From: an uncultured Candidatus Saccharibacteria bacterium
GTDB lineage: Bacteria; Patescibacteriota; Minisyncoccia; 2-02-FULL-40-12
NCBI GenBank assembly: GCA_964361105.1
Contig: CAYHZG010000003.1
Location: 1 to 37,419 of the forward strand
Length of the DNA: 37,419 nt
Direction: 5' to 3'
The notes beneath the pieces are model-generated. The model saw only the letters and a list, made by a program, of their open reading frames with translations. It was not told the DNA's origin and made no database searches. Shown here piece by piece: positions 14,873 through 33,778 of this stretch. Numbering within the stretch: the stretch's first letter is position 1; every line of letters starts with the position of its first letter. The translations under genes and the position numbers were made by a program.

Positions 14873-14985
14873 TCCCGTTAGAAGTTAACCCTAACGGGAG
14901 TAAACATGAATTATCTTATTATAAAGTTTTATAATCTTTGCCACTGGTTTAAGGCGGTGGATGATCTGTAAAACTTCTAACGGGA
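14873..14985 (+). mobile_element. Family A element, copy 1 (113 nt), ending on the A of the downstream ATG
   Basis: TCCCGTTAGAAGTT...AACTTCTAACGGGA terminal inverted repeat; internal CCCTAACGGG. Confidence 0.8.
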
Positions 14986-15236
14986 TGGCTGAAGAAAAAC
15001 TTGTCGGAAAAATAACCCACTATTATAATGCTATCGGAGTCGGAATTATTGAGTTATCTGGTGCTTTGAAAGTAGGGGACGCAGTCCATATTAAAGGCAA
15101 AGCGACTGATTTTGAACAAATGGTTGATTCTTTGCAGATTGAGCATAAAGAGGTTCAAAGCGCCAAAAAAGGTGACGTGATTGGGATTAAGACGAAGCAG
15201 AAGGTAAAAGAAGGGGACGAAGTCTATCTAAAATAA
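14985..15236 (+). CDS. Small translation-factor-like beta-barrel protein (U32 C-terminal-like)
   Basis: MAEEKLVGKITHYY...LKVGD.VHIKG..TDFEQ.VDSLQIEH...GIK...VKEGDEVY. The ORF-track extension MICKTSNG lies inside the repeat. Confidence 0.8.
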   Translation: MAEEKLVGKITHYYNAIGVGIIELSGALKVGDAVHIKGKATDFEQMVDSLQIEHKEVQSAKKGDVIGIKTKQKVKEGDEVYLK

Positions 15237-15257
15237 AAAATTTTATTTCAATAAAAA

Positions 15258-17657
15258 ATGAGCGAATTCAAGATCAATAATTTTACCGTTAAAGACGAAC
15301 TCCCGGTAATTGCTTTAAAGGAGGTAGTTTTATTTCCGACCTTAATCGTTCCAAATATAATCATTGGCCGGCCTAAAACCATGGCCGCTTTGGGCAAAGC
15401 CATGATTGAAGATAAGCTGGTTATCTTTGTCGCTCAGAAAAATCTATCAGAAGAGGTCAGTCCGGAAAATCTTTATTCGGTCGGAACCCTGGGCCGGATT
15501 AATCTGGTTTTAAAGGCCAATGGCGGCACCGCCAGAATTGAAGTCGAAGGTCTTAAAAGAGTCAGAATTTTGAATTTTCCGAAAACCGAGCCGTATCTAG
15601 CGGCCAAAATTGAACCGCTTGATATTCAGAAAGGAGATAATCTTGAAGTTGAGGCCTTGGTTAGATCGGTTTTGGAGAATTTTGACAAGGTTTCAGAAGT
15701 GGTTAGGCCGCTCCCGCCGACCTTTTTTAATTTAATTAAAAGCATCAAAGACCCGGAGCAGGTTTTATCGCTGATTGTTTATCACTTGGGCTTCAATGTT
15801 GTTGACCAGCAAAGAATTTTGGAAACAACCGATATCAGAGAGGTGCTTAGAGAAATTAATAAACATTTGGTTAAAGAATTGGAAATTTTGGAAACCGAGA
15901 AAAAGTTGGCCAAGGAAACCAGAAAGCAGCTTGGTAAGATGCAAAAGGAGGTTTATCTGCGGGAACAGCTTCGGAGTATTGAAAAGGAATTGGGCTTGGC
16001 TGGAGAAAAAACCGAGTTTGAAATGCTTCGCAAAAAAATAAAAGATGCCAAAATGCCCAAAGAAGTCGAGGCCAAAGCAACCAAAGAACTTGAACGGATG
16101 GAAAAAATGCCTTCATTCAGCCCAGAAGTCGCCTATATCAGGACTTATCTTGATTGGCTGGTTGAACTGCCTTGGTCTAATTCGACCAAAAACAAGATAG
16201 ACATTAAAAAGGCAGCCAAAATTTTGGAGGAGGACCATTTTGGCCTTGAAAAAGCTAAGGAAAGAATTCTGGAGTATCTGGCCGTCCAAAAACAAGTTGG
16301 TAAGATTAAAGGCCCAATTCTTTGTTTTATGGGGCCGCCCGGAACCGGCAAAACCTCAATCGGCCAGTCAATCGCAAGGGCTCTCGGCCGGAAGTTTTTA
16401 AGAATTTCTCTTGGCGGCATCAGGGATGAAGCCGAGATAAGGGGCCACCGCCGAACTTATGTTGGTGCTTTGCCCGGCCGGATTATTCAAGGGATTCATA
16501 GCGTCAAGGTCAATAATCCGGTTTTTATGCTGGATGAGATTGATAAAATCGGCTATGACTTCCGGGGCGACCCGTCAGCCGCTTTGCTTGAGGCCTTGGA
16601 TCCTCAGCAAAACAATTCATTCTCTGACCACTACCTTGAGACACCCTTTGACTTATCCAATGTTTTCTTCATCACCACGGCCAATATCTTAGATACCGTT
16701 CCGCCGGCCCTGCGCGACCGTTTGGAAATAATTGAGTTTCCGGGTTACACCGAGCATGAAAAATTCCATATTGCCAAAGGATTTTTGATTCCTAAGCTTT
16801 TAAAAGAGCATGGTGTTGAAAAAATGGTCAGTTTTAATGATGAAGCAACCAAAGAAGTGGTCAGACGTTATACCCGCGAGGCCGGAGTGAGGGATCTTGA
16901 AAGGCAATTAGCCAAGGTGGCCAGGAAGAATGTCCGGAATTTAGTTGAATCAGGCAAAAGGGCCGGAAAAATTTCGGTTGATATTTCCTCATTAAGAAAA
17001 TTTTTAGGTCCAGAAAGATATATTTCTCAGCTCGCCGAAAAAAGAGATGAAGTTGGCGTGGCCACGGGCCTGGCCTGGACCTCAGTTGGAGGAGAAGTTT
17101 TGTCGGTTGAGGTGACTAAGATGCCGGGCAAGGGAAAACTGGAACTGACCGGTCACTTGGGCAATGTCATGAGAGAATCGGCCAAGGCAGCTTTGTCCTT
17201 TTCGAGAGCCTATGCCTCAAAAGCCAGCGACATTCTGAAAGATTTTTATAGCTACGATATTCATATTCATGTTCCTTCGGGCGCGATTCCCAAAGACGGC
17301 CCATCAGCCGGGATAACCATTTCTACGGCTTTGATTTCGCTTTTTACCGGAGCCAAAGTTAGAAAAGACGTGGCCATGACCGGCGAGGTAACATTGCGCG
17401 GCAAGGTTTTGGAAATCGGCGGGATTAAAGAAAAAGTTTTGGCGGCTCACCGAGCCGGCATTAAAAATGTGATTTTGCCCAAAGACAATGAAAAGGACTT
17501 AGACGACATACCCAAAGAAATAAATAAAGAAATGAAATTCATTTTTGTCGAGCATATGGGTGATGTTCTGAAGGCGGCTTTAAAGTGGCCCAAGGCGCCA
17601 AAAGGTGAGGTTATCCAACCGCGAAGCTTAATCGCTCAAATTCCGCGCATCTCATGA
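15258..17657 (+). CDS. lon: ATP-dependent protease La
   Basis: GPPGTGKTS Walker [27 protein letters not shown] catalytic Ser, IGGIKEK. Confidence 0.98.
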
Positions 17658-17658
17658 A

Positions 17659-17828
17659 TCCCGTTAGAAGTCGCCCTAACGGGTTAAACGAATAAAACAT
17701 CAAATGAATAAGAAAAGTAGCTCTGCGCATAAAACTAACAATGCAGACTGCGCAGTCCCGTTAGAAGCCGCGAGGGCCCGCAGCGTGCCTCTGCTTCTAA
17801 CGGGACGAAGCAGCGACTTCTAACTGGA
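17659..17828 (+). mobile_element. Family A element, copy 2, with a nested short copy; flanked by TGAA/TGAA
   Basis: TCCCGTTAGAAGTCGC...GCGACTTCTAACTGGA; TGAA at 17655-17658 and 17829-17832. Confidence 0.85.
17756..17805 (+). mobile_element. Family A short (50-nt) element nested in copy 2
   Basis: TCCCGTTAGAAG-CCGCGAGGGCCCGCAGCGTGCCTCTG-CTTCTAACGGGA. Confidence 0.85.
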
Positions 17829-18034
17829 TGAATCCCCCGAATAATGAATACATAGTTTTTCCCTCAGCCAAGTCACTTTTGACTATTGGCCTTGTTTCCG
17901 CGATTCTGGCGCCCATTGTCGGCATAATTCTGGGACTTTATTTTTTAAGAAGGCCGCAATTGGTCAAAGAAGGGAGAAGCATTATTTTGGTCGCTTTCAT
18001 TTGGTTAGCCGTCATTTTTATCATTGCTTTCTAA
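17828..18034 (+). CDS. Small two-TM membrane protein
   Basis: 68 aa; two hydrophobic helices; PIVGIILG. Confidence 0.65.
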   Translation: MNPPNNEYIVFPSAKSLLTIGLVSAILAPIVGIILGLYFLRRPQLVKEGRSIILVAFIWLAVIFIIAF

Positions 18035-19163
18035 TAAGAACTTTCTTTACTCGGCCTCTATTTTAATCGGAACAATCGTCGGGGTCGGGATTTTCGGAAT
18101 TCCTTTTTCCTTTGCCAAAGCCGGATTTTTGACCGGTTTTTTGTTTTTAGTTTTCGTCGGTTTATTGAGTTTGGCAGTTAATCTGATTTTCGGTGAAATT
18201 GTCTTAAGGACAAAAGAGGTCCACCAATTTACCGGCTATGCCAGGATTTATTTGAATAAGGGTTTTAGAATCTTAGCTTCTTTTGCCTGGTTTTTGGGTA
18301 TTTACGCCGCCTTACTCGCCTATATAATTTTGAGCGGCAATTTTTTATTCAATCTTTTTATTTCCCAGTTTTACGGCGAACCATTTGTTTTTAGCATCTG
18401 GTTTTTTGCCTTTGCGGCCTTGGTGGTTTTAGCCGGACTTAAAACTGTAGTCCAGTTTGAGTTTTTCATGGTTCTCTTTTTCACCTTGATTGTATTTTTA
18501 ATTTTTGGATTTGGAGTTCCGAAAATTGAGCTTCAAAACCTGGCCACGTTGTTTAATCAAGAATTCTGGTTCTTGCCTTACGGCATCTTGCTTTTTGCTT
18601 ATGCCGGTTTTTCGGCTATTCCGATTCAAAGGGAGTTAATCAAAAATAAAACTGGGGTCTTGAAAAAAGCGATTTTGTGGGGCAGCTTGGTGCCAGTAGT
18701 TCTTTATCTAGTTTTTACGCTGTCAATAGTTGGTATTTCCGGGGATACGACCTCACCAGATGTGGTTAGCGGCCTGCGCGAGTTTTTTGATTATAGAATT
18801 ATTTCTTTGGTTTCGCTTTTCGGGCTTTTAGCCATTACTACTTCGTTTATGGCTTTGTCAGTGGCTTTGATTGAGACCTTTCGGCTTGATTATGGTTTTA
18901 AGCGTTTTAACGCCTGGGCCTTGACGGTTTTCTTGCCCTTTATCTTATTTTGGTTTGGGATCAGGAATTTTATTGAGGTGATTTCTTTGGCCGGCTCGGT
19001 GGCTATTGGTATTGAGGGGATTATTTTGATTTTTATGTATAAGGCAGCTAAAAAATCCGGCAGCCGGGAGCCAGAGTATTCTTTAAACTTGCCGAATTTG
19101 GTACTAAATGGAATAATGATTCTGTTTGCTCTAGGCGCGGTTTATGCGTTGTTCTTTGAATAA
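18024..19163 (+). CDS. Amino acid permease (aromatic amino acid/HAAAP-like, APC superfamily)
   Basis: GTIVGVGIFGIPF in TM1; about 11 TM helices; LLAITTSF. Confidence 0.85.
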   Translation: MLSNKNFLYSASILIGTIVGVGIFGIPFSFAKAGFLTGFLFLVFVGLLSLAVNLIFGEIVLRTKEVHQFTGYARIYLNKGFRILASFAWFLGIYAALLAYIILSGNFLFNLFISQFYGEPFVFSIWFFAFAALVVLAGLKTVVQFEFFMVLFFTLIVFLIFGFGVPKIELQNLATLFNQEFWFLPYGILLFAYAGFSAIPIQRELIKNKTGVLKKAILWGSLVPVVLYLVFTLSIVGISGDTTSPDVVSGLREFFDYRIISLVSLFGLLAITTSFMALSVALIETFRLDYGFKRFNAWALTVFLPFILFWFGIRNFIEVISLAGSVAIGIEGIILIFMYKAAKKSGSREPEYSLNLPNLVLNGIMILFALGAVYALFFE

Positions 19164-19164
19164 T

Positions 19165-19716
19165 ATGAAAACATTTTTACTTGTTGTAATTTTACTGGCT
19201 GTTTTTGCAGGAATTATTTGGTTTTCAGGTAAAAGAAAAGAAGAAGTAAGTTTTCCGCAGCCAACCTTGACTCCAACAGTACCCGTTGTTTGTACGCGGG
19301 AAGTTAAGCTATGTCCTGATGGTTCTACTGTTGGCAGAACAGGACCGAACTGTGAATTTGCTCCTTGTCCAACACCAACATCGATTTCAACTCCAACCCC
19401 TAAAGCAACTATTAGTCCCAAGATCACTACCATTAATATGACTGATAGCGGTTTTGTGCCAAGTAATATCACAATAAATATTGGCGAGACGGTGAAGTTT
19501 GTAAATCAAAGCAATCTAGCTCGTTGGCCGGCCTCGGGCATCCATCCGACTCACGATTTGTATCCGGAGAAAGGCGGCTGTATTTCGAGTGCCTTTGACG
19601 CCTGCCATGGTTTGGCAAAGGGCGAGATTTTTTCTTTTACCTTTACTTTTAAAGGAACCTGGCCGTATCATGATCATTTAGCCCCGTCTCTTAAAGGCAC
19701 AATAATTGTTCAATAA
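19165..19716 (+). CDS. Membrane-anchored cupredoxin-fold protein with a small Cys motif
   Basis: CTREVKLCPDGSTVGRTGPNCEFAPCP; FVPSNITINIGETVKFVN, HPTH, WPYHDHL, GTIIVQ. Confidence 0.8.
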   Translation: MKTFLLVVILLAVFAGIIWFSGKRKEEVSFPQPTLTPTVPVVCTREVKLCPDGSTVGRTGPNCEFAPCPTPTSISTPTPKATISPKITTINMTDSGFVPSNITINIGETVKFVNQSNLARWPASGIHPTHDLYPEKGGCISSAFDACHGLAKGEIFSFTFTFKGTWPYHDHLAPSLKGTIIVQ

Positions 19717-19728
19717 TTTTTGAATCCG

Positions 19729-21168: not shown

Positions 21169-21264
21169 AATATATATAGATATGAATCTATATAATTATT
21201 TCGCTTGGTTGAAGTGAATAAATAACTATTCACTTCTCCCTCGCTTATAATTATAATTTTGGTA

Positions 21265-21462
21265 ATGGTAAGGGATGGTTTTATGAACCTGATTACCGTG
21301 ATTGCAATTGTCGTAGTTGCTTTAGTTGCTGGATACTTTTTGGGTTTTAGTATAGGAAAGAAACAAGGAAGTCAGGTTCTTCAAATTTCAACTCCGACCC
21401 CAGGTGTAGATACTGGTTATCAGAATCCCTTTGAAGGAGTGAGACTCAACCCATTTAGATAA
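21265..21462 (+). CDS. Small single-TM hypothetical protein
   Basis: Hydrophobic N-terminus; NPF motifs; stop overlaps the next ATG; start uncertain. Confidence 0.6.
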   Translation: MVRDGFMNLITVIAIVVVALVAGYFLGFSIGKKQGSQVLQISTPTPGVDTGYQNPFEGVRLNPFR

Positions 21463-23021: not shown

Positions 23022-23090
23022 CATAGATTTAGCTTAGAATTATTTTCTCGGCAGTTTGCCGATTTTTAATTTTTATGGCAGAGTATTTTA

Positions 23091-24167
23091 ATGGTTAATA
23101 AAGTTTTCGTAGCTATGTCCGGCGGCGTTGATTCTTCGGTGGCCGCAGCTCTTTTGAAGAAACAGGGCTACAATGTAGTCGGAGTTTTTATGCGTCCATG
23201 GCAACCAGAGACAGTTAACATTGATTGTTTGTGGAGAGAGGACAGAGAAGACGCTTTAAGGGTAGCCGCAAAATTGGGTATTCCTTTACTGACTTGGGAT
23301 TTTTCAAAAGAATATGAAAAATATGTGGTCGAATACATGATTGAAGGATACAGGCAGGGGAGGACACCAAATCCAGACGTGATGTGCAACAAATTCATCA
23401 AGTTTGGATTATTTTTGGATAAAGCATTGAAACTTGGTGCCGATTATATTGCAACAGGACATTATGCCCGTCTAAATACGGCCTCCGAATCCGTTCGCCG
23501 AACAACTCCCGTGCGGCTCGATTACAAATTACTAAAGGCTAAGGACTTAAACAAAGATCAGTCGTATTTTTTGTATACTCTTAATCAAGGACAGTTGAAA
23601 CACTGCTTATTTCCGATAGGAGATTATACCAAGACCGAGGTCAGAAAGATGGCCAAGAAATTCAGGTTGCCTAATTGGGATAAAAAAGACAGCCAGGGTG
23701 TTTGTTTTGTCGGGCCGCTTGAAGTCAAAGAGTTTTTAAAAAGACATATTCAGCCAAAAAGAGGTTTGGCTTTAAGAAAAAGCGATGGTAAAATTTTGGG
23801 AGAACATGACGGTGCCTGGTTTTATACCATTGGCCAGAGGCATGGATTGAATTTAAGCGCTGGTAAGCCCTATTATGTAGTAGATAAAGATATTAAGAAA
23901 AATATTATTTTTGTTGATGAAAAAGCCGGAAGCAGCAAGTCAGAACTTCAAATAAGCGATTTTAATTGGGTGAATAAAAAAAAGCTGCCTTTGGATTGCA
24001 AAGTTAAGACTAGATACAGGCAAAAAGATTTGGATTGCACGATTATAAAAAACGGCTCTGGCAGAGCTTCGGTAAAAATAAAAGAAAATAATATCCCGGT
24101 TGCGCCGGGTCAGGCAGCCGTTTTCTATAAAGGAAGTCAAGTATTAGGAGGTGGAATAATATCATAA
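23091..24167 (+). CDS. mnmA: tRNA 2-thiouridine(34) synthase
   Basis: AMSGGVDSSV, TPNPDVMCN, ATGHYA, KDQSYFL, DSQGVCF, TIGQR, PGQAAVFY. Confidence 0.97.
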   Translation: MVNKVFVAMSGGVDSSVAAALLKKQGYNVVGVFMRPWQPETVNIDCLWREDREDALRVAAKLGIPLLTWDFSKEYEKYVVEYMIEGYRQGRTPNPDVMCNKFIKFGLFLDKALKLGADYIATGHYARLNTASESVRRTTPVRLDYKLLKAKDLNKDQSYFLYTLNQGQLKHCLFPIGDYTKTEVRKMAKKFRLPNWDKKDSQGVCFVGPLEVKEFLKRHIQPKRGLALRKSDGKILGEHDGAWFYTIGQRHGLNLSAGKPYYVVDKDIKKNIIFVDEKAGSSKSELQISDFNWVNKKKLPLDCKVKTRYRQKDLDCTIIKNGSGRASVKIKENNIPVAPGQAAVFYKGSQVLGGGIIS

Positions 24168-24177
24168 TTTCTAATCT

Positions 24178-25464
24178 TTGAATCACCAGGAAATCCGCAG
24201 AAAATTCTTGGACTTTTTTGAGAAGCACGGCCATAAAATTGTGCCGTCTTCTTCTTTAATTCCCGATGACCCATCAGTTCTTTTCACTACGGCCGGGATG
24301 CAGCAATTTAAAAAATATTATTTGGACAGTGATTCACCCTTCGGAGCTAAAATGGCATCAATCCAAAAATGTATAAGAACCACCGACATTGACGAAGTCG
24401 GTGACGAGAGTCATCTGACTTTTTTTGAGATGCTCGGCAATTTTTCATTCAAATTTCCTGAGGCCGAGGGTTCTTACTTTAAAGAAGAGGTAATAAAATT
24501 GGGCTACGATTTAATAATTGATGAGTTAAAAGTTCCATTAGATCGGATAAAAATCTCAATTTTTAAGGGCGATTTCAAAAATAATATTCCTGAAGACAGA
24601 GAATCTCTGGAAATTTGGAAGTCAGCGGGAATTCCAGAAGACAAAATAATTTTTGGTTCAAGAGAAGATAATTTTTGGGGGCCGACTGGAGAAGAAGGAC
24701 CATGCGGGCCGACTACTGAAATTCACATTGACGGAATTGAAGTTTGGAATATCGTTTTCAATGAATACTATTGCGATAAAGAAAAGCACCTAGTTTCTTT
24801 ACAAAGAAAAGGCGTTGATACCGGAATGGGTTTGGAAAGATTGGCCATGGTCATGCATGGTGAAAAATCCGTCTTTGAGACTGATTTATTTACGCCATTA
24901 ATAACTGAAATACACGGGAAAAGTTTATACCATGATGAAAAGAGTATTAAATCCGAAAGAATAGTCGCCGACCACTTAAAGGCAAGCATATTTATAATTT
25001 CTGACGGGGTGAGTCCTTCAAATTTCGGCCGAGGATATGTTTTAAGAAAATTAATCAGAAAAATAATGAGACACTCAAAAAAGTTGAGTTTGCCGGATGA
25101 CTTTTTACAACGTTCTTTGGAAACAATCATAAACATTTATAAAGAATATTATCTTGAGTTAAAGAAAAATAAAGAAAAAATTCTCGGTATATTTAAAGAA
25201 GAGTTCCAAAAATTTGGAACCGCTCTTGACAAAGGACTTAAGGAATTTGAAAAAATAAAACAGTCTGCTTTAAAAAACAAGCAAAAATCGATTTCCGGCG
25301 CTGAGGCCTTTGGTCTTTACCAGAATTTCGGCTTTCCAGTAGAATTTACGAACGAGCTTGCCAATGAAAATGGATTGGGAGTTGACTTTAATGGTTTTAA
25401 AAAGGAAGAAGATAGGCATAAGGAAATTTCAAGAATGAGTCAAGAGAAAAAGTTTAGGAAGTAA
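24178..25464 (+). CDS. alaS: Alanine--tRNA ligase, aminoacylation domain only
   Basis: LFTTAGMQQFK, HLTFFEMLGNFS, GPCGP, DTGMGLERL, ADH, GRGYVLR; ends at 428 aa. Confidence 0.9.
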   Translation: MNHQEIRRKFLDFFEKHGHKIVPSSSLIPDDPSVLFTTAGMQQFKKYYLDSDSPFGAKMASIQKCIRTTDIDEVGDESHLTFFEMLGNFSFKFPEAEGSYFKEEVIKLGYDLIIDELKVPLDRIKISIFKGDFKNNIPEDRESLEIWKSAGIPEDKIIFGSREDNFWGPTGEEGPCGPTTEIHIDGIEVWNIVFNEYYCDKEKHLVSLQRKGVDTGMGLERLAMVMHGEKSVFETDLFTPLITEIHGKSLYHDEKSIKSERIVADHLKASIFIISDGVSPSNFGRGYVLRKLIRKIMRHSKKLSLPDDFLQRSLETIINIYKEYYLELKKNKEKILGIFKEEFQKFGTALDKGLKEFEKIKQSALKNKQKSISGAEAFGLYQNFGFPVEFTNELANENGLGVDFNGFKKEEDRHKEISRMSQEKKFRK

Positions 25465-25491
25465 TTTAAACTTTTATTAAAGTTTTACTTG

Positions 25492-25602
25492 CCCCGTTAG
25501 AAGTAGCCCTAACGGGTCAGTAAATTAAACAGTTATTAATTAAAGTATTTTCAGAGACACATTGGTCACTCCTATGTGTTGCTGTTACTACTTCTAACGG
25601 GG
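25492..25602 (+). mobile_element. Family A element, copy 3 (111 nt), ending on the G of the GTG start
   Basis: CCCCGTTAGAAGTAG...CTACTTCTAACGGGG 15-bp inverted repeat; internal CCCTAACGGG. Confidence 0.8.
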
Positions 25603-27092
25603 TGAAGATAATTAATATTGCTTCAAGCGATAACTTTGAAGACATTTTAGAAGCAGTCCGAACCTCTGAATCAGCCGGCCTGATTTTGATTGTTCCAAAA
25701 TCAAACCGGGTTTTTAAAAGTGGGGCCAGGGTTAATAAACTAAAAGATTACTTTGATAAATTAGGCAAAGACGTTTCTATAATTTCATCCAGCGACGAGA
25801 TTATTAAAAATGCTAACTTAGCTGGCTTTAATATTCTTCAAGAAACCAAGATGGCCGATAAAAAAGACGAGGAGATTGTTTCTCTGTATTCAGAAGAGCC
25901 GCCTCAAGAAAAAGAGATTAAGAGTATTCCCCATCCCGTCAGAGTCAGAGCTAGAATCAGTAATAAAAAGATTATTTTTATCTTTTTAGCCGTGGCCCTG
26001 CTTTCACTTGGTTTTATTGCTTTTATTTCAGTTAGCCAGGCAAAAATAAAAATAACTCCCGGCAAAAAAGATTTTTCCGTGAATATTCCAGTAATGGTTT
26101 CTAGTAGTATCACTAGGCCTGATGAGGTCTATGGAATGATACCCGGCGAATTGATTCAGGTTGAAAAAGTTGTATCAAAGACATTTACAGCTAGTGGCGA
26201 TAAAGAAGTTTTTCAGAAAGCCGAAGGCGAGATAATTATTTATAATAACTTTAGCGCGGTTCCACAGGTATTAGTGGCCACAACCAGATTCCAGACACCC
26301 GAAGGTTTGGTTTTTAGGATCTTAAAGACGGTCACGGTTCCAGGAAAAGTAAAGGTTGGCAACGAACTTAAGCCAGGCGAGATTAAGGCAAAAGTTATCG
26401 CTGACCGGGCTGGCGAAGAATACAATATTGAACCGACCGAATTCAAAATCCCCGGTTTTTTAGGGGGCCCGAAATATCAAGCATTTTACGCCAAGTCGTT
26501 CAGTAGTTTTTCTGGCGGTTTTGTGGGTCGGTCCAGTTTCGTAACCAAAGATGACTTGAAAAAAGCAGAAGAGCAAGTTCGGCAGGAAGCGATAAGCGAT
26601 GTAAAAAATGAATTGGCTTTACTAAAGGATTTTAAAATTTTAGAAGAGGCCCTGGAAATAGAAACGGAAAAAATGCCTGACTCAGCCAAGGATGGCGATT
26701 TGGTCAAAGAATTTAAGGTAAGTTTAAAGGCAAGAGCAAAAGCACTAGCTTTCAAAGAAAGCGATGTTATGGATTTTATCTCTCAATACATAAGCAATTC
26801 GCAGGGTCTCATGATTATTAGAAACGGACTGAGTATAAATTATAACGAGCCGAAGCTGGACAAAGCGAAAATGGAACTTTCTTTTAAGCTGGTTTCTCGG
26901 GGCAAGACCGCTGAAAATGTAGATAAGGAAAGGATAATCACCGAGATTTTAGGTAAAAAGGCACCCGAAGTTAAAAAGTATCTTGGCAATCTGAAAGAAA
27001 TTGAATCAGCCCAGGTTCTTCTTTCGCCCTTTTGGATCAAGGCAGTCCCTAAAAACAGGGATAAAATCAGAGTGGAGATCATAATTGAATAG
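25602..27092 (+). CDS. Single-TM protein with baseplate J-like domain
   Basis: KAEGEIIIYN, LVATTRF, VIADRAGEEYNI, FSGG, LSPFW. Confidence 0.65.
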   Translation: MKIINIASSDNFEDILEAVRTSESAGLILIVPKSNRVFKSGARVNKLKDYFDKLGKDVSIISSSDEIIKNANLAGFNILQETKMADKKDEEIVSLYSEEPPQEKEIKSIPHPVRVRARISNKKIIFIFLAVALLSLGFIAFISVSQAKIKITPGKKDFSVNIPVMVSSSITRPDEVYGMIPGELIQVEKVVSKTFTASGDKEVFQKAEGEIIIYNNFSAVPQVLVATTRFQTPEGLVFRILKTVTVPGKVKVGNELKPGEIKAKVIADRAGEEYNIEPTEFKIPGFLGGPKYQAFYAKSFSSFSGGFVGRSSFVTKDDLKKAEEQVRQEAISDVKNELALLKDFKILEEALEIETEKMPDSAKDGDLVKEFKVSLKARAKALAFKESDVMDFISQYISNSQGLMIIRNGLSINYNEPKLDKAKMELSFKLVSRGKTAENVDKERIITEILGKKAPEVKKYLGNLKEIESAQVLLSPFWIKAVPKNRDKIRVEIIIE

Positions 27093-27148
27093 GCCTTGCT
27101 TTTTTACTCCGCTTATAATATATTCATTAAGCACCATAGCACCATATA

Positions 27149-27361: not shown

Positions 27362-27540
27362 AAAATTTATTCTTGTCTTTGCTGAATGGGAATATTTGGT
27401 TCGCTCATTCTCGGGCATTCCAGCGATGCCCTCCGAGGTCGTCGGCCGTTTTGCCTCGCTATTGCTCGGACCAAGCCAAAACGGCCTCCGAATCCGCTTA
27501 CCAAACATTCCCATTCAGCTTTCCTAAAATTTTCTATAAC
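27355..27540. repeat. Nested inverted-repeat structure after infA
   Basis: GTTATAGAAAATTT / AAATTTTCTATAAC (14 bp), GCTGAATGGGAATATTTGGT / ACCAAACATTCCCATTCAGC, GGCCGTTTTG / CAAAACGGCC. Confidence 0.8.
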
Positions 27541-27726
27541 GAAAAGCCCGCAGGGTATGGTTGTTGAGGAACCTCGTGAACCGAGCCGTTTTGAGGAGAT
27601 ATGCTTTATAGCGAGGCGAACGAGGAGTGAGGGTTTATTCTGATAAACAGGAGATAAGATAATTATATAAGATGTATGAGGCCGAACGTTTCCGAAACAA
27701 CTATACCCGAGAGGCCTTTCGTTATA
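27535..27726 (+). repeat. Family C element, copy 1 (conserved core 27567-27693 inside a long closing stem)
   Basis: Core aligns to the reverse complement of 37232-37359. Confidence 0.85.
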
Positions 27727-27730
27727 CACA

Positions 27731-27844
27731 ATGAGAATTCGTTCAGCAGTCAAAAAAATGTGCCGGAATTGTAAAATTGTCCGAAGAAAAGGACGGCTAT
27801 ATTGCATTTGCAGGAATCCGAAGCATAAGCAGAGACAGAAGTAA
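27731..27844 (+). CDS. rpmJ: 50S ribosomal protein L36 (Zn-binding form; below the ORF-track cutoff)
   Basis: [37 protein letters not shown], in canonical position. Confidence 0.97.
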
Positions 27845-28017
27845 GTTTTTGTCCAAGAGCGAAGCGATTGGTAACAAAAAGTTACCGAGCACATAAGGCG
27901 TTATGTGCTCGGTGTCAGAGCACACAATAAAATTGTGTGCTCGATCGAGCACTTAACAGAGTTAAGTGCTCTGACTCAATGTTGTAGCTATTCGCTTCGC
28001 TCATAGACAACATTGGC
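27845..28017 (+). promoter_or_regulatory. Structured rpsM leader (family D, copy 1) with three GAGCAC...GTGCTC hairpins
   Basis: GAGCGAAGCGA 27857-27867 pairs with TCGCTTCGCTC 27992-28002; three internal hairpins. Confidence 0.6.
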
Positions 28018-28404
28018 ATGGCTAGAATTTCAGGGGTCAATATTCCAGACAACAAGCGAATAGAAGTTGCCTTAACCTATATTTATGGAATAGGTTCGAC
28101 TTTAAGTAAGCTAGTTTTAAAAACAACCGGCGTGAATCCAGACAAAAGGGCTAAGGATTTAACCAGCGATGAAATTAACAAAATTCAAAACGTTATAGAA
28201 AAAAATTATCAGGTGGAGGGCGATTTGAGAAGGGAAGTATTGGATAATATAAAACACATGAAAGAATCTGGAACCTGGCGGGGGATGAGACATTCTAAAA
28301 AACTGCCTCTTCATGGCCGGACCAAAACTAATTCAAGAACTTTAAGGGGGAACCTTAGAAAGACAATGGGTTCGGGCAGAAGGCCGCCGGCGACGCCGAC
28401 TTAA
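28018..28404 (+). CDS. rpsM: 30S ribosomal protein S13
   Basis: MARISGVNIP, ALTYIYGIG, VEGDLRR, RTKTNSRT. Confidence 0.98.
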   Translation: MARISGVNIPDNKRIEVALTYIYGIGSTLSKLVLKTTGVNPDKRAKDLTSDEINKIQNVIEKNYQVEGDLRREVLDNIKHMKESGTWRGMRHSKKLPLHGRTKTNSRTLRGNLRKTMGSGRRPPATPT

Positions 28405-28526
28405 GGAATAGCTCTCCTTCGCTAAAGCTCTCTCCTTCAGTAAACTTTCGGAGAGCAGGTCGGAATAGCACTTCGACTTGTCCTCTGAAGTTTTAACGAA
28501 AGAGGAAGCTCCGAAGGAGCGAAGAA
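28405..28526. repeat. Palindromic REP-like cluster between rpsM and rpsK
   Basis: CTCCTTCG.....AGCT at the left matches AGCT.CGAAGGAG at the right; internal CTCTCC/GGAGAG, AGGTCG(G)A/TCGACTT and TCCTCT/AGAGGA stems. Confidence 0.65.
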
Positions 28527-28997
28527 GTGGGTAAAAAAAGAATTGTGGTAAAACCTGGTGATGAGACATTGACCATTGAAAAAGGGGTTGAGGTTAAGGT
28601 TTCCCCGCTACATAAAGTAGCGGGGCAGGCAAAAAAAGCTGTCAAAAAACAAGTGATCAGGGGCAATGTTTTTATTCACGCCAGTTTTAATAACACGATT
28701 GTTACCGTTACTGATGAAAAAGGAAATGTGATAACTTGGGCTTCGGCCGGAAACCTTGGTTTTAAAGGCACGAAAAAATCAACGCCTTTTGCGGCGACGT
28801 TGGTTGGAAAAGCCGCCGCTGAAAAAGCAAGAAAATTCGGTTTTACCGAAGCCGAGGTTTACGTAAAAGGAGTCGGGCCTGGTCGGGAGGCGGCCATTCG
28901 AGGTTTATTTTCGGCCGGCATAGATATTAAAGGAATAATTGATAATACGCCGATTCCGCATGGCGGGGTCAAGCCGCCGAAACCTAGGAGGGTTTAG
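28527..28997 (+). CDS. rpsK: 30S ribosomal protein S11
   Basis: ASFNNTIVTVTD, GFKGTKKSTPFAA, GPGRE, TPIPHGG. Confidence 0.98.
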   Translation: MGKKRIVVKPGDETLTIEKGVEVKVSPLHKVAGQAKKAVKKQVIRGNVFIHASFNNTIVTVTDEKGNVITWASAGNLGFKGTKKSTPFAATLVGKAAAEKARKFGFTEAEVYVKGVGPGREAAIRGLFSAGIDIKGIIDNTPIPHGGVKPPKPRRV

Positions 28998-29127
28998 TTT
29001 TTGTCTAAGAGCGAAGCGATTAGCAACAAAATCTAAACCGAGCACTCAGCAAGGAAAATTATTTACATTTCTGAGTGCTCGGTGCTGAAATTTATAGTTG
29101 CTCGCCGAGCTCGCAAATAAATTTCGC
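28996..29127 (+). promoter_or_regulatory. Structured rpsD leader (family D, copy 2)
   Basis: Same 5' block as the rpsM leader; hairpin ACCGAGCACTCAG / CTGAGTGCTCGGT. Confidence 0.6.
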
Positions 29128-29766
29128 ATGGCAAGATACACTGGTCCAAAAGAAAAAATTGAAAGACGACTGGGTGAGAAACTTTTTTTGAAAGGGGAGC
29201 GTTCTTATTCTCCAAAAGCAGCCATGGTTCGTAAGCCCTATCCGCCAGGGGTCCATGGTCGTCGCCTAAAAAACAGAAAATTTTCCGAGTACGGCCTTCA
29301 ACTTATCGCCAAGCAAAAAGTCAGAAATATTTATCGCATTTTGGAGAGACAGTTCAGAAGATATACCGATGAAGCGGTGAAATCTAGGGGTGATTCGGGT
29401 GAGGCCTTGGTCCAAGGTTTAGAAAGACGGCTGGATAATGTAGTTTTTCGATTAGGATTTTCTGATGCCAGAGACACGGCGAGACAACTGGTTAGCCACA
29501 GTCATTTTTTGGTCAACGATAAGCATATCAACATTCCTTCTTTCAAGGTCAGAGTTGGCGATGTCGTAAAAGTAAAACCGCAAAATTTAAAGAACAAATA
29601 TTTTTCTTCTTTTCTGCCTCGATACTTGAAAAAGTACCAGCCTCCTAGCTGGCTTGAGGTTGATAAAGAAACATTTATCGGCAAGGTTAAGAATTTGCCA
29701 AGTTTAGCCGAAAGCGGCGTTCAGCATAAAGATGTTCAGGCGATAATTGAGTTTTATTCGAGGTAG
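29128..29766 (+). CDS. rpsD: 30S ribosomal protein S4
   Basis: MARYTGP, PPGVHG, SEYGLQL, LERRLDNVVFRLG, ARQLVSH, IIEFYSR. Confidence 0.98.
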   Translation: MARYTGPKEKIERRLGEKLFLKGERSYSPKAAMVRKPYPPGVHGRRLKNRKFSEYGLQLIAKQKVRNIYRILERQFRRYTDEAVKSRGDSGEALVQGLERRLDNVVFRLGFSDARDTARQLVSHSHFLVNDKHINIPSFKVRVGDVVKVKPQNLKNKYFSSFLPRYLKKYQPPSWLEVDKETFIGKVKNLPSLAESGVQHKDVQAIIEFYSR

Positions 29767-29781
29767 GCAAAGCCATATGGA

Positions 29782-29896
29782 TCCCGAACGAAATAGCCCT
29801 GTCGGGTTCGGGATATAAGTAAAATTTTAATTAAATAGCATGATGGGCAATTATAGACTTATGTATATAACTGCGCAGCAGCTATTTCGTACGGGA
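29782..29896 (+). mobile_element. Family A divergent copy 4 (115 nt) before rpoA; flanked by TGGA/TGGA
   Basis: TCCCGAACGAAATAGC...GCTATTTCGTACGGGA; shares ACTGCG(C/A)AGCAGC with copy 5 and, split by the nested insert, copy 2. Confidence 0.75.
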
Positions 29897-30657
29897 TGGA
29901 AATTTTAGTCGGAGAGCCAAAAATTGTCAGCAAAGAAAACAACAGAACGGTTTTTGAAATTAGCCCGCTCTATACAGGATATGGGATAACAATCGGAAAC
30001 TCCCTCCGGAGGGTTTTACTTTCTTCAATGCCCGGGGCCGCGGCCGTGAAAATCAAGATTGAAGGCGTGCCTCACGAATTCACGACCATTCCTGGCGTTT
30101 TAGAAGATGTGGTAGACATAATTTTAAATTTAAAGAAAGTAAGGTTTAAACTTTCAGGAGTTGATTCGGCCAAAGCCATTTTGAATGCCAAAGGAGAGAA
30201 AGAAATCACGGCCGGCGATTTAAGTTTGCCGACTGGTGTGGAGGTGGTAAATCCGGACCAAAAAATCTTAACTTTAAGCGACAAAAAAGCCGAGGTTAAT
30301 ATGGAGATAGAAATTGAAAAGGGCATTGGTTATGGGCCGGTTGAGCAAAGGCAGAAAGAGAAACTTTCGGTCGGGGAAATAGCCATTGACGCAATTTTTA
30401 GTCCGGTTCGGAGGGTCAGTTTTCGAGTTGAGAATATCAGAGTGGGGGAGAGGACTGATTTTAATAAACTTTTCATTGACGTTGAAACCGACGGCAGCGT
30501 TACTCCCGAAGAAGCCATGAAAAAAGCAGTTGGAATTTTAATTGAGCAGTTTAAGGTAATGGGCGAGAGTCCAAATTTAGAGGTTAAAGTAAAAGAGCCA
30601 GCCGAAGACAAACCAAAAAAGAAAAGAGGAAGACCCAGAAAAGTAGTCGGTAGTTAA
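29896..30657 (+). CDS. rpoA: RNA polymerase alpha subunit lacking the alpha-CTD
   Basis: GYGITIGNSLRRVLLSS, HEFTTIPGVLEDV, IDAIFSPV, RVGERTDF, ETDGS; ends KKKRGRPRKVVGS at 253 aa. Confidence 0.97.
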   Translation: MEILVGEPKIVSKENNRTVFEISPLYTGYGITIGNSLRRVLLSSMPGAAAVKIKIEGVPHEFTTIPGVLEDVVDIILNLKKVRFKLSGVDSAKAILNAKGEKEITAGDLSLPTGVEVVNPDQKILTLSDKKAEVNMEIEIEKGIGYGPVEQRQKEKLSVGEIAIDAIFSPVRRVSFRVENIRVGERTDFNKLFIDVETDGSVTPEEAMKKAVGILIEQFKVMGESPNLEVKVKEPAEDKPKKKRGRPRKVVGS

Positions 30658-30671
30658 AAATTAGAAAAATC

Positions 30672-31019
30672 ATGAGAAAACGGAAAAAGGGGAAAAAATT
30701 TGGAAGAGTCAAAGAACAGAGAAGAGCTTTAATGAATAGCTTGGTTTCTGCATTGGTCTTGCATAAAAAGATAAAGACCACCGAGGCGAAAGCCAAAGAG
30801 TTGAGGCGTTTTATAGAGCCCTTGATTACCAAAGCCAGAGTCGGCGATTTGGCCAAAAGGCGTCAGGTCAGAAAATTTTTGTCTGACTCAATTACCAAGA
30901 AACTGTTTGATGAAATAGGACCGTTGTATAAAGAAAGGCCCGGCGGCTATACCAGAATCATCAAACTGGCGCCACGGGAATCGGACGGAGCGCGAATGGC
31001 CCAGATAGAATTTGTATAA
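30672..31019 (+). CDS. rplQ: 50S ribosomal protein L17
   Basis: IKTTEAKAKELR, ERPGGYTRIIKL. Confidence 0.98.
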   Translation: MRKRKKGKKFGRVKEQRRALMNSLVSALVLHKKIKTTEAKAKELRRFIEPLITKARVGDLAKRRQVRKFLSDSITKKLFDEIGPLYKERPGGYTRIIKLAPRESDGARMAQIEFV

Positions 31020-31354
31020 TGATTGAGATTGATGCTTCAAACCAACCATTAGGACGCTTGGCTTCAAAAATAGCCCAGTTTTTGCGAGGGAAGCAAAGTC
31101 CTAGCTTTCAGCCGTATATTCTTTCTAAAGAAAAAGTTATGGTGAGCAATGCCGGAAAGATGAAATTTACCGGTAGGAAAATGGAGCAAAAAAAGTATTA
31201 TCATTATTCGGGTTATCCAGGCGGGCTTAAAGAAAAGAAAATGAAAGATGTTTTTGAGAAGAACCCGAATGAGGTTTTAAGGAGAGCGGTCTGGGGAATG
31301 CTTCCCAAAAACCGTTTGAGAAAGGAAATGATAAAAAATCTACAATTTAAATGA
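31019..31354 (+). CDS. rplM: 50S ribosomal protein L13 (short form)
   Basis: IDA..LGRLAS, LRGK, HYSGYPGGLK, AVWGMLPKNRL. Confidence 0.96.
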   Translation: MIEIDASNQPLGRLASKIAQFLRGKQSPSFQPYILSKEKVMVSNAGKMKFTGRKMEQKKYYHYSGYPGGLKEKKMKDVFEKNPNEVLRRAVWGMLPKNRLRKEMIKNLQFK

Positions 31355-31887
31355 TGGTTAAAAAAACTGCAAAAAAAACAAAAGAGCCAGCTCCAAAAAA
31401 GAAAGTAGTCGTCGAAGGCGAGCCTGGCCAAGGGCGGGAGATAAAAGTTGAGGTTAAAGCTGTAGAAAGTCCAGAAAGATATCTTGAGGCAGTTGGCCGG
31501 AGAAAAGAATCCATTGCCAGAGTCCGGCTTTTCACCAAAAAAGCAAGCGATAAATTCCCGGAAGACAAGGGCTTGATTTCGGTCAATCAGAAATCATATC
31601 AAGAGTATTTTAAGGATCCATTTTTGCAAAATACGGTTGAAGCGCCTCTTAGAAAGTTAAAATCATTGGACAGGTTTAAGGGCTCGGTTATGGTCAAGGG
31701 CGGGGGGCTCTCCGGCCAGGCTGATGCTATAAAACTAGGCGTGGCTCGGGCTTTGGTTTTGTTTGACGCCAACTACCGCAAGAAACTCAAAAAATTCGGC
31801 TACCTGACCCAGGATTCCCGCATCAAAGAAAGACGGAAATACGGACTAAAGAAAGCACGAAAAGCGCCGCAATGGGCGAAGAGGTAA
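31351..31887 (+). CDS. rpsI: 30S ribosomal protein S9 with Lys-rich N-terminal extension
   Basis: GRRKESIARV, GGGLSGQADAI, KERRKYGLKKARKAPQWAKR. Confidence 0.98.
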   Translation: MMVKKTAKKTKEPAPKKKVVVEGEPGQGREIKVEVKAVESPERYLEAVGRRKESIARVRLFTKKASDKFPEDKGLISVNQKSYQEYFKDPFLQNTVEAPLRKLKSLDRFKGSVMVKGGGLSGQADAIKLGVARALVLFDANYRKKLKKFGYLTQDSRIKERRKYGLKKARKAPQWAKR

Positions 31888-31925
31888 TGTCAAAATTTAC
31901 GATGCCGCATTGGGCAAAACGATAA

Positions 31926-31995
31926 GGAGTCATAACTCGGTTGCTTCATCTGCTATAAGTTATGACTCCAGTTTCGGCGGGTTTTCTGTTTTTAT
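31926..31995 (+). terminator. Hairpin after rpsI, possible operon terminator
   Basis: GGAGTCATAACT...AGTTATGACTCC 12-bp stem, then T-rich sequence. Confidence 0.45.
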
Positions 31996-32049
31996 TTGAC
32001 TCCATTTCTTCTTTTAAATACGATTAAGCCAGCACTTAGGAGGGAGGTG
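31996..32049 (+). promoter_or_regulatory. Sigma70-like promoter and strong Shine-Dalgarno for the orphan gene
   Basis: TTGACT 31996-32001, 17 nt, TACGAT 32019-32024; GGAGGTG 32043-32049. Confidence 0.6.
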
Positions 32050-32053
32050 AGTG

Positions 32054-32632
32054 ATGCGATTAGTTACTCCAGTCTTTTTGACGGTGTTGCTGTTTTTTTC
32101 GTGGCCGGCGACCGCGAGTCAAGCAGTCCAAAGGCAAAAACTCTGTTCAGAAATGGACGAGAAAGAAAGGCGCAAGACCGAGCGCTGTAAAACTGACCAG
32201 GAGCGGCGCGAAGACGAGCAAAAACGCCATCTGGCTGAAATCGCCGAGAAAGAGAAGCCGACCAAGAGTTCCTTTATGAAATGGGTCCATTTGGACGGCT
32301 ACTGGATTCAGAGCGCAAGCTCAAATATGTTTCAGGGTCTTGCCGGAATGCATGTTGTAGTTTTTGAGGAAGGCCGTCTCCAGCTCTACGGTCCGCCCGG
32401 CATTATCCTTGTCCGCCAGCAGGTCAGCAAAGAGGAGCATCAGCTCCACTTTGGCATTACTTGGGGATTTAGTTTTCGTTTATTCGATATTCGTGTTCCG
32501 GGTACAGACAATGAGGTCAGGGTCTTTGGCAATTTGGCCAAGGTTTGGCTCCAGGGCGTCAATCAGGATATTCCCGGAGCGAGCATTTCAGCAATAGACA
32601 TGGTTGGCCTTTCGGTCACTTTTGCCAAGTAG
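32054..32632 (+). CDS. Hypothetical secreted protein, probably horizontally acquired
   Basis: Signal peptide (ATA-SQA); visibly GC-richer codons; own promoter, SD and terminator. Confidence 0.7.
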   Translation: MRLVTPVFLTVLLFFSWPATASQAVQRQKLCSEMDEKERRKTERCKTDQERREDEQKRHLAEIAEKEKPTKSSFMKWVHLDGYWIQSASSNMFQGLAGMHVVVFEEGRLQLYGPPGIILVRQQVSKEEHQLHFGITWGFSFRLFDIRVPGTDNEVRVFGNLAKVWLQGVNQDIPGASISAIDMVGLSVTFAK

Positions 32633-32644
32633 GTCCGCCAAGCG

Positions 32645-32698
32645 GCCCCGCCACCAAGAAAGAAAGGCCTTGTCCTTCCAGCTTGGCGGGGCTTTTCT
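32645..32698. terminator. Terminator between convergent genes
   Basis: GCCCCGCCA...TGGCGGGGC followed by TTTT. Confidence 0.65.
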
Positions 32699-32701
32699 AA
32701 T

Positions 32702-33580
32702 TCAGATAATTAAGTCGTTCCTCCCGCCACTTGGGTCTACTTCCACGAAATTAGTTTTGCCGCTTTCGGTCAGATAAATCAGATGCCAGCTTGTTTTAAA
32801 CCATAAGACCCGCTCTATTTTTTCACTGGTTTTTAAAATCACTTCTTTGTGGCTTTTTTCAAAATACGGCGGCTCATTTTCATTTTTAAGCCAGAGGATG
32901 CTTATCTCATTTTGGCCGACAACGGCCAGTTTTTTGTTGTCCGGCGACAGGACTAAATCGTTTGCAGACGAAGAATGAATATTTTCCCAATTGCCATCTG
33001 AACTTAATAAGAACACACCGGGCGCCTTGAGGTCTTTTGAGGCCAAGTAGATCTCCTTCTCCAAAACTTTTAATTCAAAGTTCTTAATGTACACCGATTC
33101 GGAAGATATTTTTTCTATTTTTTCATCTTCGGTTTTTCGATAAAGCAAGCCGTCTTTTTTATTTATGAAATAACTGGGGTTTTCTTTTACTGGTTCTGAA
33201 CTTTCAATGAAATCATTTATCTCTCCCTGGTCCGGCAAGTAAAGATGAGTCAATTGGTTGGCTTCGCCGGATTTAATTTCAATAGTTTTGCTGATTTTTG
33301 GAAATCCTTCTTTTGAAAATTTTAAGTCATATTTCCCGGGCAGAAGATTTTTTTCAATGAAAGTATTGGAAAAGAACGAGGTTTTTCCCTTGAGGTGGCC
33401 GTTAATGTAAACCTCAACGCCATCCAGATTTGCCTTTGTAAAAAGACCGCCGGTTTCCACCCATTTTAAATTAGCGAAATTAAATTGATAGCCGTAAGCG
33501 TATGAAATTATAAAATAACTCAAAACAAAAAAAGCCAGAAACGAAGTGATTAAAATTGCGGTCTTCGTACGTTTACTCAT
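32702..33580 (-). CDS. Membrane-anchored PEGA-domain protein
   Basis: N-terminal TM, YAYGY, TGGL, VYING, NLLPGKYDLKFSKEGF, LSPDNKKLA. Confidence 0.8.
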   Translation of the reverse strand: MSKRTKTAILITSFLAFFVLSYFIISYAYGYQFNFANLKWVETGGLFTKANLDGVEVYINGHLKGKTSFFSNTFIEKNLLPGKYDLKFSKEGFPKISKTIEIKSGEANQLTHLYLPDQGEINDFIESSEPVKENPSYFINKKDGLLYRKTEDEKIEKISSESVYIKNFELKVLEKEIYLASKDLKAPGVFLLSSDGNWENIHSSSANDLVLSPDNKKLAVVGQNEISILWLKNENEPPYFEKSHKEVILKTSEKIERVLWFKTSWHLIYLTESGKTNFVEVDPSGGRNDLII

Positions 33581-33662
33581 GAGAGTTTTTATTTTATACT
33601 TCTATTAATAAATCGTCAATTTGACTTCCGGCTGTTTTTTGATACTTTTTTAATACTTTGAA

Positions 33663-33778
33663 CCCCGTTAGAAGTAGCCCTAGCGGGTGAAACACTCGGG
33701 GTATTAAATATATAACAATAGTAGTTCTGCGTGCATAACCGATTATTACGGACTGCGAAGCAGCTACTTCTAACGGGG
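33663..33778 (+). mobile_element. Family A element, copy 5 (116 nt) before mreB; flanked by TGAA/TGAA
   Basis: CCCCGTTAGAAGTAGC...GCTACTTCTAACGGGG 16-bp inverted repeat; TGAA at 33659-33662 and 33779-33782. Confidence 0.85.

Follow-up and report, generated by a model that had tools for sequence, protein, structure and literature searches.

Element Copies in the Window

The window analysed here is a stretch of 37,419 nucleotides, contig C3 (CAYHZG010000003.1) of the uncultured Candidatus Saccharibacteria assembly GCA_964361105.1 from a tiny groundwater bacterium, designated G000, which comprises 524,235 bases in 59 contigs and is 87.6% complete. Alongside genes that include lon, infA, rpsM, rpoA and mreB, it holds repeated copies of a short palindromic element, and the long copies of this element end on the first base of the start codon of the next gene. 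The relatives of the MreB encoded here carry the titles of metagenome-assembled genomes (MAGs) of Patescibacteria or the Parcubacteria group. The element is laid out as a pyrimidine (Y) followed by CCCGTTAGA at its left end, and TCTAACGGG followed by a purine (R) at its right end. Exact occurrences of its 11-mer CCCGTTAGAAG in the window number nine, and two more sites differ from it at one position; allowing at most two mismatches raises the count to 19, compared with 9.0 ± 2.5 in shuffled sequence, and none of 100 shuffles attains that count.

An earlier note, made from the letters alone, had described five long palindromic copies, and reading of the sequence bears out the coordinates of all five (Table 1). 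Its claim that the final purine of each copy is the first base of a downstream ATG or GTG likewise stands for all five, with the qualification that the start at copy 14873 is ambiguous, because a further in-frame ATG lies inside the element at 14961. For the other four, the open reading frames (ORFs) 17828-18034, 25602-27092, 29896-30657 (RpoA) and 33778-34779 (MreB) open on the final purine of the element. The three exact 4-bp flanking duplications proposed earlier were found as TGAA (17655-17658 and 17829-17832), TGGA (29778-29781 and 29897-29900) and TGAA (33659-33662 and 33779-33782), as were the compensating variants in both arms of the rpoA copy. Copy 17659, whose right arm has one mismatch (CTAACTGG), illustrates the outcome of insertion at a gene junction: the upstream TGAA keeps the lon stop codon, and the downstream TGAA together with the final A of the element forms a new ATG. 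At the mreB copy, the former TTG start is still present at 33658-33660, and the N-termini of MreB relatives align with the start at 33778.

Table 1. Element copies in the window (positions on the forward strand; a dot marks copies given without strand)
Feature	Position	Strand	Context
Long copy, GTTAAC-loop subfamily	14873..14985	+	Final A is base 1 of ATG 14985, 83-aa EF-Tu-domain-2-like ORF; no duplication
Long copy with nested short copy	17659..17828	+	In ATGA stop/start overlap of lon (TGA 17655-17657) and a 68-aa ORF
Nested short element	17756..17805	.	48-nt core 17757-17804, inside long copy 17659
Long copy	25492..25602	+	Final G is base 1 of GTG 25602, 496-aa ORF; no duplication
Long copy, variant matching arms CCCGAACGAAAT / ATTTCGTACGGG	29782..29896	+	Final A is base 1 of the rpoA ATG; TGGA duplicated
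Long copy	33663..33778	+	Final G is base 1 of the mreB GTG; TGAA duplicated
Short copy (48-nt core)	35780..35829	.	In frame inside glycosyltransferase ORF 34776-36005; encodes PIRGKNTLRALAASNG

Association with Gene Starts

Over the whole of G000, 38 copies were listed with cores of 28-168 nt, those of 100 nt or more being referred to as long. They comprise 27 copies with CCCGTTAGA-type ends, six with ends of the CCCG(A/T)ACGA type, in which the two arms agree, and five of a second family (family B) with the ends CCCRGTAGT...ACTACYGGG. Twelve of the 13 long copies with the first two end types adjoin an ORF of 64-697 aa that opens on the terminal purine, the sole non-abutting copy lying at C20:1487, and all five family B copies adjoin ORFs of 62-264 aa, with the ATG located inside the duplicated TATG or ATGA. 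The start-codon bias first proposed for the window thus holds genome-wide. The genes downstream encode class A and class B penicillin-binding proteins, an AI-2E transporter, TIM, YceG, YidC, NusG and Hsp20; since these are full-length housekeeping proteins (in TIM, profile position 1 falls at residue 3), they are not fragments of broken genes.

We then scanned 41 related genomes for the short, long and family B patterns. The short pattern occurs in 17 of them (79 elements) and the long pattern in 15 (75 elements), and 23 have neither. An RTG follows on one side in 64 of the 75 long copies (65 matches, one element being matched on both strands) versus about 12% by chance. At the fetched loci of relatives (40 regions plus the search loci), 48 of the 59 long copies adjoin an ORF, the minimum length being 60 aa, or 30 aa for an ORF cut off by the end of the locus. 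Family B was found in five of the 41 genomes, and 7 of its 9 copies there lie at ORF starts. Among all 111 catalogued arm pairs, an ORF start is adjoined by 58 of the 77 long but only 7 of the 34 short ones. Of 401 genomes sampled across the phylum, 27 hold long copies with RTG directly after them; these come from several classes and have quite different interiors. In addition, six stretches of IMG/VR contigs match the short pattern. This spread across the phylum, the second family, the short in-frame copies and the frequent position at operon stop/start junctions (both described below) are additions to the earlier note.

In a Patescibacteria KR13 MAG (L016), a palindrome CCCCGTTAAATGG...TTATTTAACAGGG lies about 110 nt upstream of mreB, with ends that are related yet different, and similar CCCAGTTAAAT ends are found at G000:C33:4277-4326; by their sequence, the two suggest a wider superfamily. 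Finally, two 66-nt copies at G000:C2:18294-18359 and 23349-23414 are identical at 65 of 66 positions, in opposite orientation and 5 kb apart. Both sit on the ATGGAT start of divergently oriented genes and are open in frame with the old start, so that 24-aa N-terminal extensions are possible.

Mobility and Size Classes

Sequence comparison indicates that the elements are mobile. An exact 4-bp duplication flanks 35 of the 58 gene-abutting long copies, with seven further copies showing one mismatch, and 15 of the 34 short copies. The duplicated words on the gene side are mainly TGAA (32), TGAG (10) and TGGA (10), and TTGA/TCAA is common among insertion sites that are not starts. Elements are nested inside elements, as in window copy 17659, and the 17659 composite including its nested insert is identical at 166 of 168 positions to G000:C5:9966-10133, in unrelated flanks. 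Genome G014 holds two copies identical at 110 of 110 positions at different genes, and G009 a pair identical at 121 of 123 positions at unrelated loci. Empty sites were found as well. Logan contigs from three DNA runs of two studies join position 17657 to 17842 with a single G between, the element being absent and lon being followed directly by ATGAGTAATGAATAC; these contigs have variant letters at 17606 and 17627 and derive from a related strain. The region upstream of mreB holds no element in five relatives. The glycosyltransferase homologue P0001 (93% identical) is without the insert at 35780, and the homologue P0002 has an independent PVRGRGVLRALAASNG insert near that site. With terminal inverted repeats in all 65 gene-abutting copies examined (the Y/R pair and 13 complementary bases, with few mismatches), target-site duplications in many copies and none in some, small size, 38 copies in G000, insertion polymorphism and no transposase ORF, the elements have the features of MITEs (miniature inverted-repeat transposable elements).

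The short and long forms differ in where they are found. All 14 copies inside ORFs, namely 12 short forms and two composites of 135 nt built from stop-free short forms, add a multiple of 3 nt (core + 2 + 4), and 13 of the 14 are set in the xxY CCC GTT AGA frame, by which the TAG of the arm is avoided; none of the catalogued copies is a typical long stop-containing form inside an ORF. Such a pattern would be expected if the inserts were kept in the mRNA and translated; it speaks against their being removed from the RNA. The insert in the GT4 glycosyltransferase of the window is a palindrome in frame within a conserved protein, absent from a close homologue and predicted to be translated, as in Rickettsia palindromic elements (RPEs). 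Separately, P0002, P0009, P0011 and P0018, all homologues of ORF 34776-36005, have other long low-complexity inserts in the inter-domain linker, which may be translated repeats of other families.

Arms, Junctions and Translation Signals

The arms pair through the terminal Y/R and 13 bases, and usually the last base of the left duplication pairs with the T of the start codon as well. Arm positions 9-12 vary yet match across the arms (position 9 is AT in 42 copies and GC in 19; six G-T and six A-C mismatches occur overall), and compensatory changes are also present in an internal hairpin. When 56 copies were folded as RNA with 30-nt flanks, the terminal stem was predicted with p > 0.5 in 91%, and the start codon was unpaired with a median probability of 0.33; the structured 5' leader that had been proposed from the window is thus recovered in predicted folds. 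The idea that an internal copy of the right arm acts as a decoy that frees the start found no thermodynamic support, the 5' arm pairing internally with p > 0.5 in only 9% at equilibrium. A strand test comparing A-C with G-U mismatches did not separate RNA from DNA structure: its apparent excess of A-C (47 vs 10) stemmed from unpaired positions beyond the arms, and within the arms the counts were 6 vs 6. A promoter role fared no better, with 36 sigma-70-like sites against 33.5 ± 6.3 in shuffles and only one weak site inside an element. Rfam gave no match in the window at gathering score, and in five loci at E ≤ 1 tRNAs alone passed the gathering score, the rest being sub-threshold chance matches.

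A co-directional upstream stop codon (ORF of at least 80 codons) lies within −6 to +7 of the element in 19 of the 58 gene-abutting long copies, being the TGA of a duplicated TGAA or TGAG in 12, a flush TAA or TAG in five and the TAG of the arm in two. In a further 18 the stop lies 7-25 nt before the element, so that 37 of 58 occupy co-directional junctions with a spacing of 25 nt or less. In 39 of 58 copies the former start codon is still there, 6 nt ahead of the core, where it opens an upstream ORF (uORF) of 6-40 codons (M-N/D/S-P-V-R...). All 39 of these uORFs stop inside the element, 37 of them 33-132 nt before its 3' end and two of them 4 nt before it. A retained-start uORF or an upstream gene stop at the foot of the stem is present in 46 of the 58 copies.

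The host was described in the earlier note as an organism with few Shine-Dalgarno (SD) sequences, and this agrees with our counts: SD-like motifs precede 62 of 524 genes versus a 9.7% background, and in the upstream regions of G000, based on crude ORF calls, neither an SD enrichment nor an outstanding purine-rich position was found. The 16S rRNA, which would have allowed an anti-SD check, was not found in the assembly. Tsurumaki et al. detected the anti-SD motif in only 48% of Parcubacteria (PMC9297842).

Proposed Mechanism

We consider it probable that these are non-autonomous, MITE-like foldback elements that insert with target duplication, rebuild the start codon, are sorted by selection and leave the downstream gene expressed through coupling. 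The ends consist of a Y...R base pair and, next to it, 13 bases complementary between the arms (YCCCGTTAGAnnnn...nnnnTCTAACGGGR), and insertion would usually duplicate 4 bp of target, mostly TGAA, TGAG, TGGA or TTGA. Where the TG of the target falls within a start codon, the old start would be left upstream, and the last purine of the element with the duplicated TG would yield a new ATG or GTG flush with the element, so that the gene stays whole. At an ATGA stop/start overlap, the TGA stop of the neighbouring gene would in addition be preserved by the upstream duplicate. Selection would then sort the products. Long forms, which carry stop codons, would survive hardly anywhere but at start codons and gene junctions, and stop-free short forms adding a multiple of 3 nt would be kept in frame inside genes. 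Where the genome is streamlined, copies in essential genes might be lost only by precise excision and may be trapped there. In the RNA, the stem of about 15 bp formed by the two arms would bury the new start codon. Ribosomes translating the retained-start uORF, or terminating at the foot of the stem after translating the upstream gene, could melt the 5' arm and free the new start, in line with the "RNA unfolding" model of translational coupling as treated in a review (PMC12548453).

Several findings weigh against this account. One recent copy (L071, recent because it is identical to its sibling at 110 of 110 positions) has no duplication, and that of the sibling is imperfect; a simple staggered cut therefore does not explain every copy, and recombination between copies may be an alternative. 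In addition, a plain survival filter would leave most long copies in intergenic DNA, so targeting or positive selection may act as well. Crude ORF calling gives G000 534 genes, with 54.6 kb of DNA between genes, and there are 233 TGRR sites at starts and 1479 intergenic ones, or 164 and 339 if ATGRR is required. Under a null in which coding insertions are lethal and intergenic ones neutral and not deleted, 14-33% of the long copies would fall at starts, versus the 12 of 13 (0.92) observed. The claim of the earlier note that the element sits on and rebuilds initiation codons, the terminal purine and the duplicated TG forming the start, is thus borne out far above the site-count null. Orientation is a third point: in three sequence clusters (18, 17 and 14 long copies), every one of the 47 members that abut a gene has the same end turned towards it (the unclustered copy L056 is, by eye, in the opposite orientation), and such uniformity within clusters would be unexpected of a symmetric-ended cut-and-paste element without selection. 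Two species (flanking proteins 78% identical) have the element at an orthologous site, moreover, where it is identical at 96 of 112 positions with unchanged arms, which hints at function or re-insertion. The coupling step, finally, derives solely from predicted folds.

No mobilizing enzyme was recognized either. None of Y1_Tnp (the RAYT-type transposase), TnpB, reverse transcriptase (RT), rve, Phage_integrase (tyrosine recombinases of XerC/D type, also the IntI test), DDE_Tnp_1, IS1380, DDE_Tnp_1_7, DDE_Tnp_4, DDE_3 or Transposase_mut was found in G000, at its completeness of 87.6%. The profiles PF01797, PF07282, PF00078, PF00665, PF00589, PF13843, PF13359, PF13358 and PF00872 were searched in G000, and NF033539 (IS1380) and PF01609 in 41 genomes. 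NF033539 matched in none of the 41, PF01609 in none apart from a single sub-threshold match in G033, and the absence of the piggyBac-type PF13843 (DDE_Tnp_1_7) from G000, the one genome searched with it, is uninformative because the control was also silent. With no ORF inside the element and none of these 11 families in the genome, the designation as non-autonomous stands. An autonomous parent was sought among arm pairs 260-6000 nt apart in G000, but all of these were separate small elements enclosing no candidate, and no contig end stops in an arm. As the elements appear to have been mobile recently and no recognizable transposase was found, a mobilizing enzyme of unrecognized type is implied. 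The only recombinase type that was found in G000 is a large serine recombinase at G000:C12:349-1902 (L083). Its homologues occur in 29 of the 41 genomes, with up to eight per genome, but because their distribution does not follow that of the elements (about 13 of 18 genomes with elements vs 16 of 23 without), this enzyme was rejected as the mobilizer.

Alternative Explanations

The elements may either target start codons or simply survive at them. The start enrichment over the survival null has p from 4.6e-10 to 1.3e-5 for family A (1.4e-3 if half of the intergenic sites are taken as non-neutral) and p 0.002 for family B, and one of three further factors is likely to contribute: machinery that prefers starts, rapid loss of intergenic copies from these streamlined genomes, or start copies being favoured. 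Active targeting, in which the enzyme would recognize a longer target (ATGRR or TATG) or a feature of gene starts or junctions and insert directionally, would build the bias in from the outset, and we regard it as a possible explanation to be held tentatively. It would account for the enrichment, for the uniform orientation within clusters and for the fact that two families with different ends and duplication registers (TGRR vs TATG) both lie on ATG. An A precedes the left duplication in 46 of 58 copies, but any start codon would give an A in this position. The enrichment itself depends on taking intergenic insertions as neutral and undeleted. The short forms, moreover, share the same ends but are mostly found off starts, with many at TTGA/TCAA sites within ORFs, which speaks against strict targeting.

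A second alternative is that the long forms are modules beneficial to the host, kept for a role at operon junctions as an RNA processing site, stabilizing stem or translation insulator, with the arms under host selection. The frequency of closely spaced co-directional junctions, the covariation of arm positions 9-12 in several combinations with few mismatches, the compensatory changes in internal hairpins and the ends conserved across the phylum are consistent with this, as are the arms, which at the orthologous site stay unchanged around an interior of about 86% identity. So is the presence of arms around tRNA genes, where they resemble a processing stem. In contrast, close relatives lack the elements (upstream of mreB in five, and both patterns in 23 of 41 genomes), no conserved sigma-70-like promoter or Rfam family match was found in them, and the conservation of the arms is in part a matter of ascertainment, as the search demanded intact arms and decayed copies would be invisible. 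On balance we think such a host role unlikely. As to the tRNA cases themselves, a tRNA-Ala(CGC) gene (Rfam, 67.5 bits) lies exactly between paired 14-nt arms at L034:1501-1607 (G031:C11:45122-45228), and G234 and G250 have another tRNA between element arms; from the sequence, either the tRNA is cargo or the arms serve as a processing stem.

More far-reaching, and in our estimation rather improbable, is a phylum-wide transposition system outside the recognized transposase families that would depend on hairpin ends, be directed to starts and junctions and possibly carry cargo of the tRNA type, with ribosomes crossing the foot of the hairpin from the old stop/start to the regenerated start. If true, this would amount to a bacterial counterpart of ribosome shunting, and to selfish DNA residing inside the initiation sites of essential genes without SD pairing.

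Removal at the RNA or ribosome level, that is, excision in the manner of an intron, or translational bypass with one duplicate as take-off and the other as landing site, is very improbable: the stem would put the old stop/start beside the new start, and direct repeats around a stable hairpin resemble phage T4 gene 60 bypassing and mitochondrial "byps", but such removal would tolerate stop-containing long forms in ORFs, where none occurs and all 14 copies are stop-free multiples of 3 nt, and no RT was found in G000 (a splicing endonuclease was not searched for).

Relation to Known Repeats and Significance

Mycobacterial interspersed repetitive units (MIRUs), the original study of which is reportedly that of Supply et al. 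in 1997, consist of tandem units with an ORF that overlaps the gene start by 4 nt; they are not known to have terminal inverted repeats or to be foldbacks. The elements described here, unlike MIRUs, are single foldback units with terminal inverted repeats, reside in Patescibacteria, have uORFs that end 33-132 nt before the new start (37 of 39), and rebuild the start through their last base and a 4-bp duplication. MIRUs are nonetheless the nearest concept, being characterized as small dispersed mobile repeats that insert at start codons with the short ORF of the repeat coupled to the host gene and expression little disturbed (PMC12548453). Like MIRUs, the present elements lie at junctions inside operons (37 of 58 co-directional, with 25 nt or less) and at starts (58 of 77 long pairs). 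RPEs, for their part, measure 105-146 nt and are not known to rebuild start codons. The short 45-, 48-, 69- and 75-nt forms seen here behave like in-frame inserts of the RPE type, but the long forms, unlike RPEs, avoid ORF interiors. RPEs and BOX repeats, with which BRE is also grouped here, are palindromic, lie in frame inside genes and are apparently translated, according to Delihas 2011 (PMC3184786). The same paper describes Neisseria REP2 and Borrelia IR repeats as dispersed and immediately upstream of genes, bringing an ATG and two internal stem-loops together with a promoter and ribosome-binding site (PMC3184786). The present elements, in contrast, have terminal inverted repeats, which REP2 and IR repeats lack, supply only the first base of the start codon, and have no SD and no promoter-like signal above chance.

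With bacterial MITEs such as Correia and ERIC, the elements share short length, terminal inverted repeats, target duplication, the lack of an ORF and, presumably, co-transcription with neighbours; unlike classical MITEs, they have arms that covary mutually instead of having one fixed sequence, and they sit on start codons. Ends starting with CC(C) and a 4-bp duplication presumably resemble those of IS1380 and piggyBac, but IS1380 transposase is absent from the 41 genomes and the piggyBac-type domain was not found in G000, with a silent control. Repetitive extragenic palindromic (REP) sequences are extragenic and have no target duplication. The elements resemble REPs and REPINs in being hairpin-forming palindromes kept over the long term with arm complementarity maintained, and family B arms contain GTAG. 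Unlike the REP/REPIN-RAYT system, however, they lie on starts and in ORFs and have duplications, and no Y1_Tnp was found in G000. The GTTAG/CTAAC motif may be similar to integron attC core sites, but the tyrosine recombinase (PF00589) of such a system was not found in G000. In titles and the opening lines of abstracts we found no description of these Patescibacteria elements, and supplements may hold repeat catalogues. The elements differ from MIRUs, RPE/BOX and REP2/IR repeats in combining a foldback element with terminal inverted repeats, a target duplication, one-base start rebuilding, in-frame short forms and an SD-poor phylum.

In genomes some 0.5 Mb in size, the elements occupy the starts of rpoA, mreB, nusG, tpiA, yidC and genes for penicillin-binding proteins. 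These genes have to be expressed through a predicted 15-bp stem with no SD signal, and so constitute natural constructs for the study of SD-less initiation and coupling, useful in Patescibacteria, which are not yet easily cultured. The annotation of these genomes is affected as well, since the elements are often the source of start sites, of "hypothetical" N-terminal extensions and of protein inserts of 18-25 aa. The family carries the MIRU idea, mobile DNA hidden at the start codon, into another phylum and another mechanism.

Neighbouring Genes and Other Repeats

Copy 25492 begins 27 nt past the stop codon of the AlaRS ORF 24178-25464, which has only 428 aa and comprises the catalytic domain (profile positions 1-435 of 552). 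Together with the 496-aa ORF beyond the element it may represent a truncated or split alaS arrangement; the split version is unsupported, the 496-aa ORF (25602-27092) being without a Pfam or PDB match.

Two other repeats are present near rpsM. The first, of about 180 nt, lies between infA and rpsM at 27540-27725 (and also at 37227-37359) and has at least 12 partial or full copies over the contigs of G000, several of them at contig ends, with a summed contig depth 10-30 times that of neighbouring bins in all four metagenome runs. It has no Rfam match, and an overlapping 175-aa ORF on the minus strand has no Pfam match. The second, at 27840-28020 just upstream of rpsM, consists of three GAGCAC...GTGCTC hairpins with copies on contigs C10, C45, C6, C20 and C56, and is, judging by these copies, a further small repeat family.

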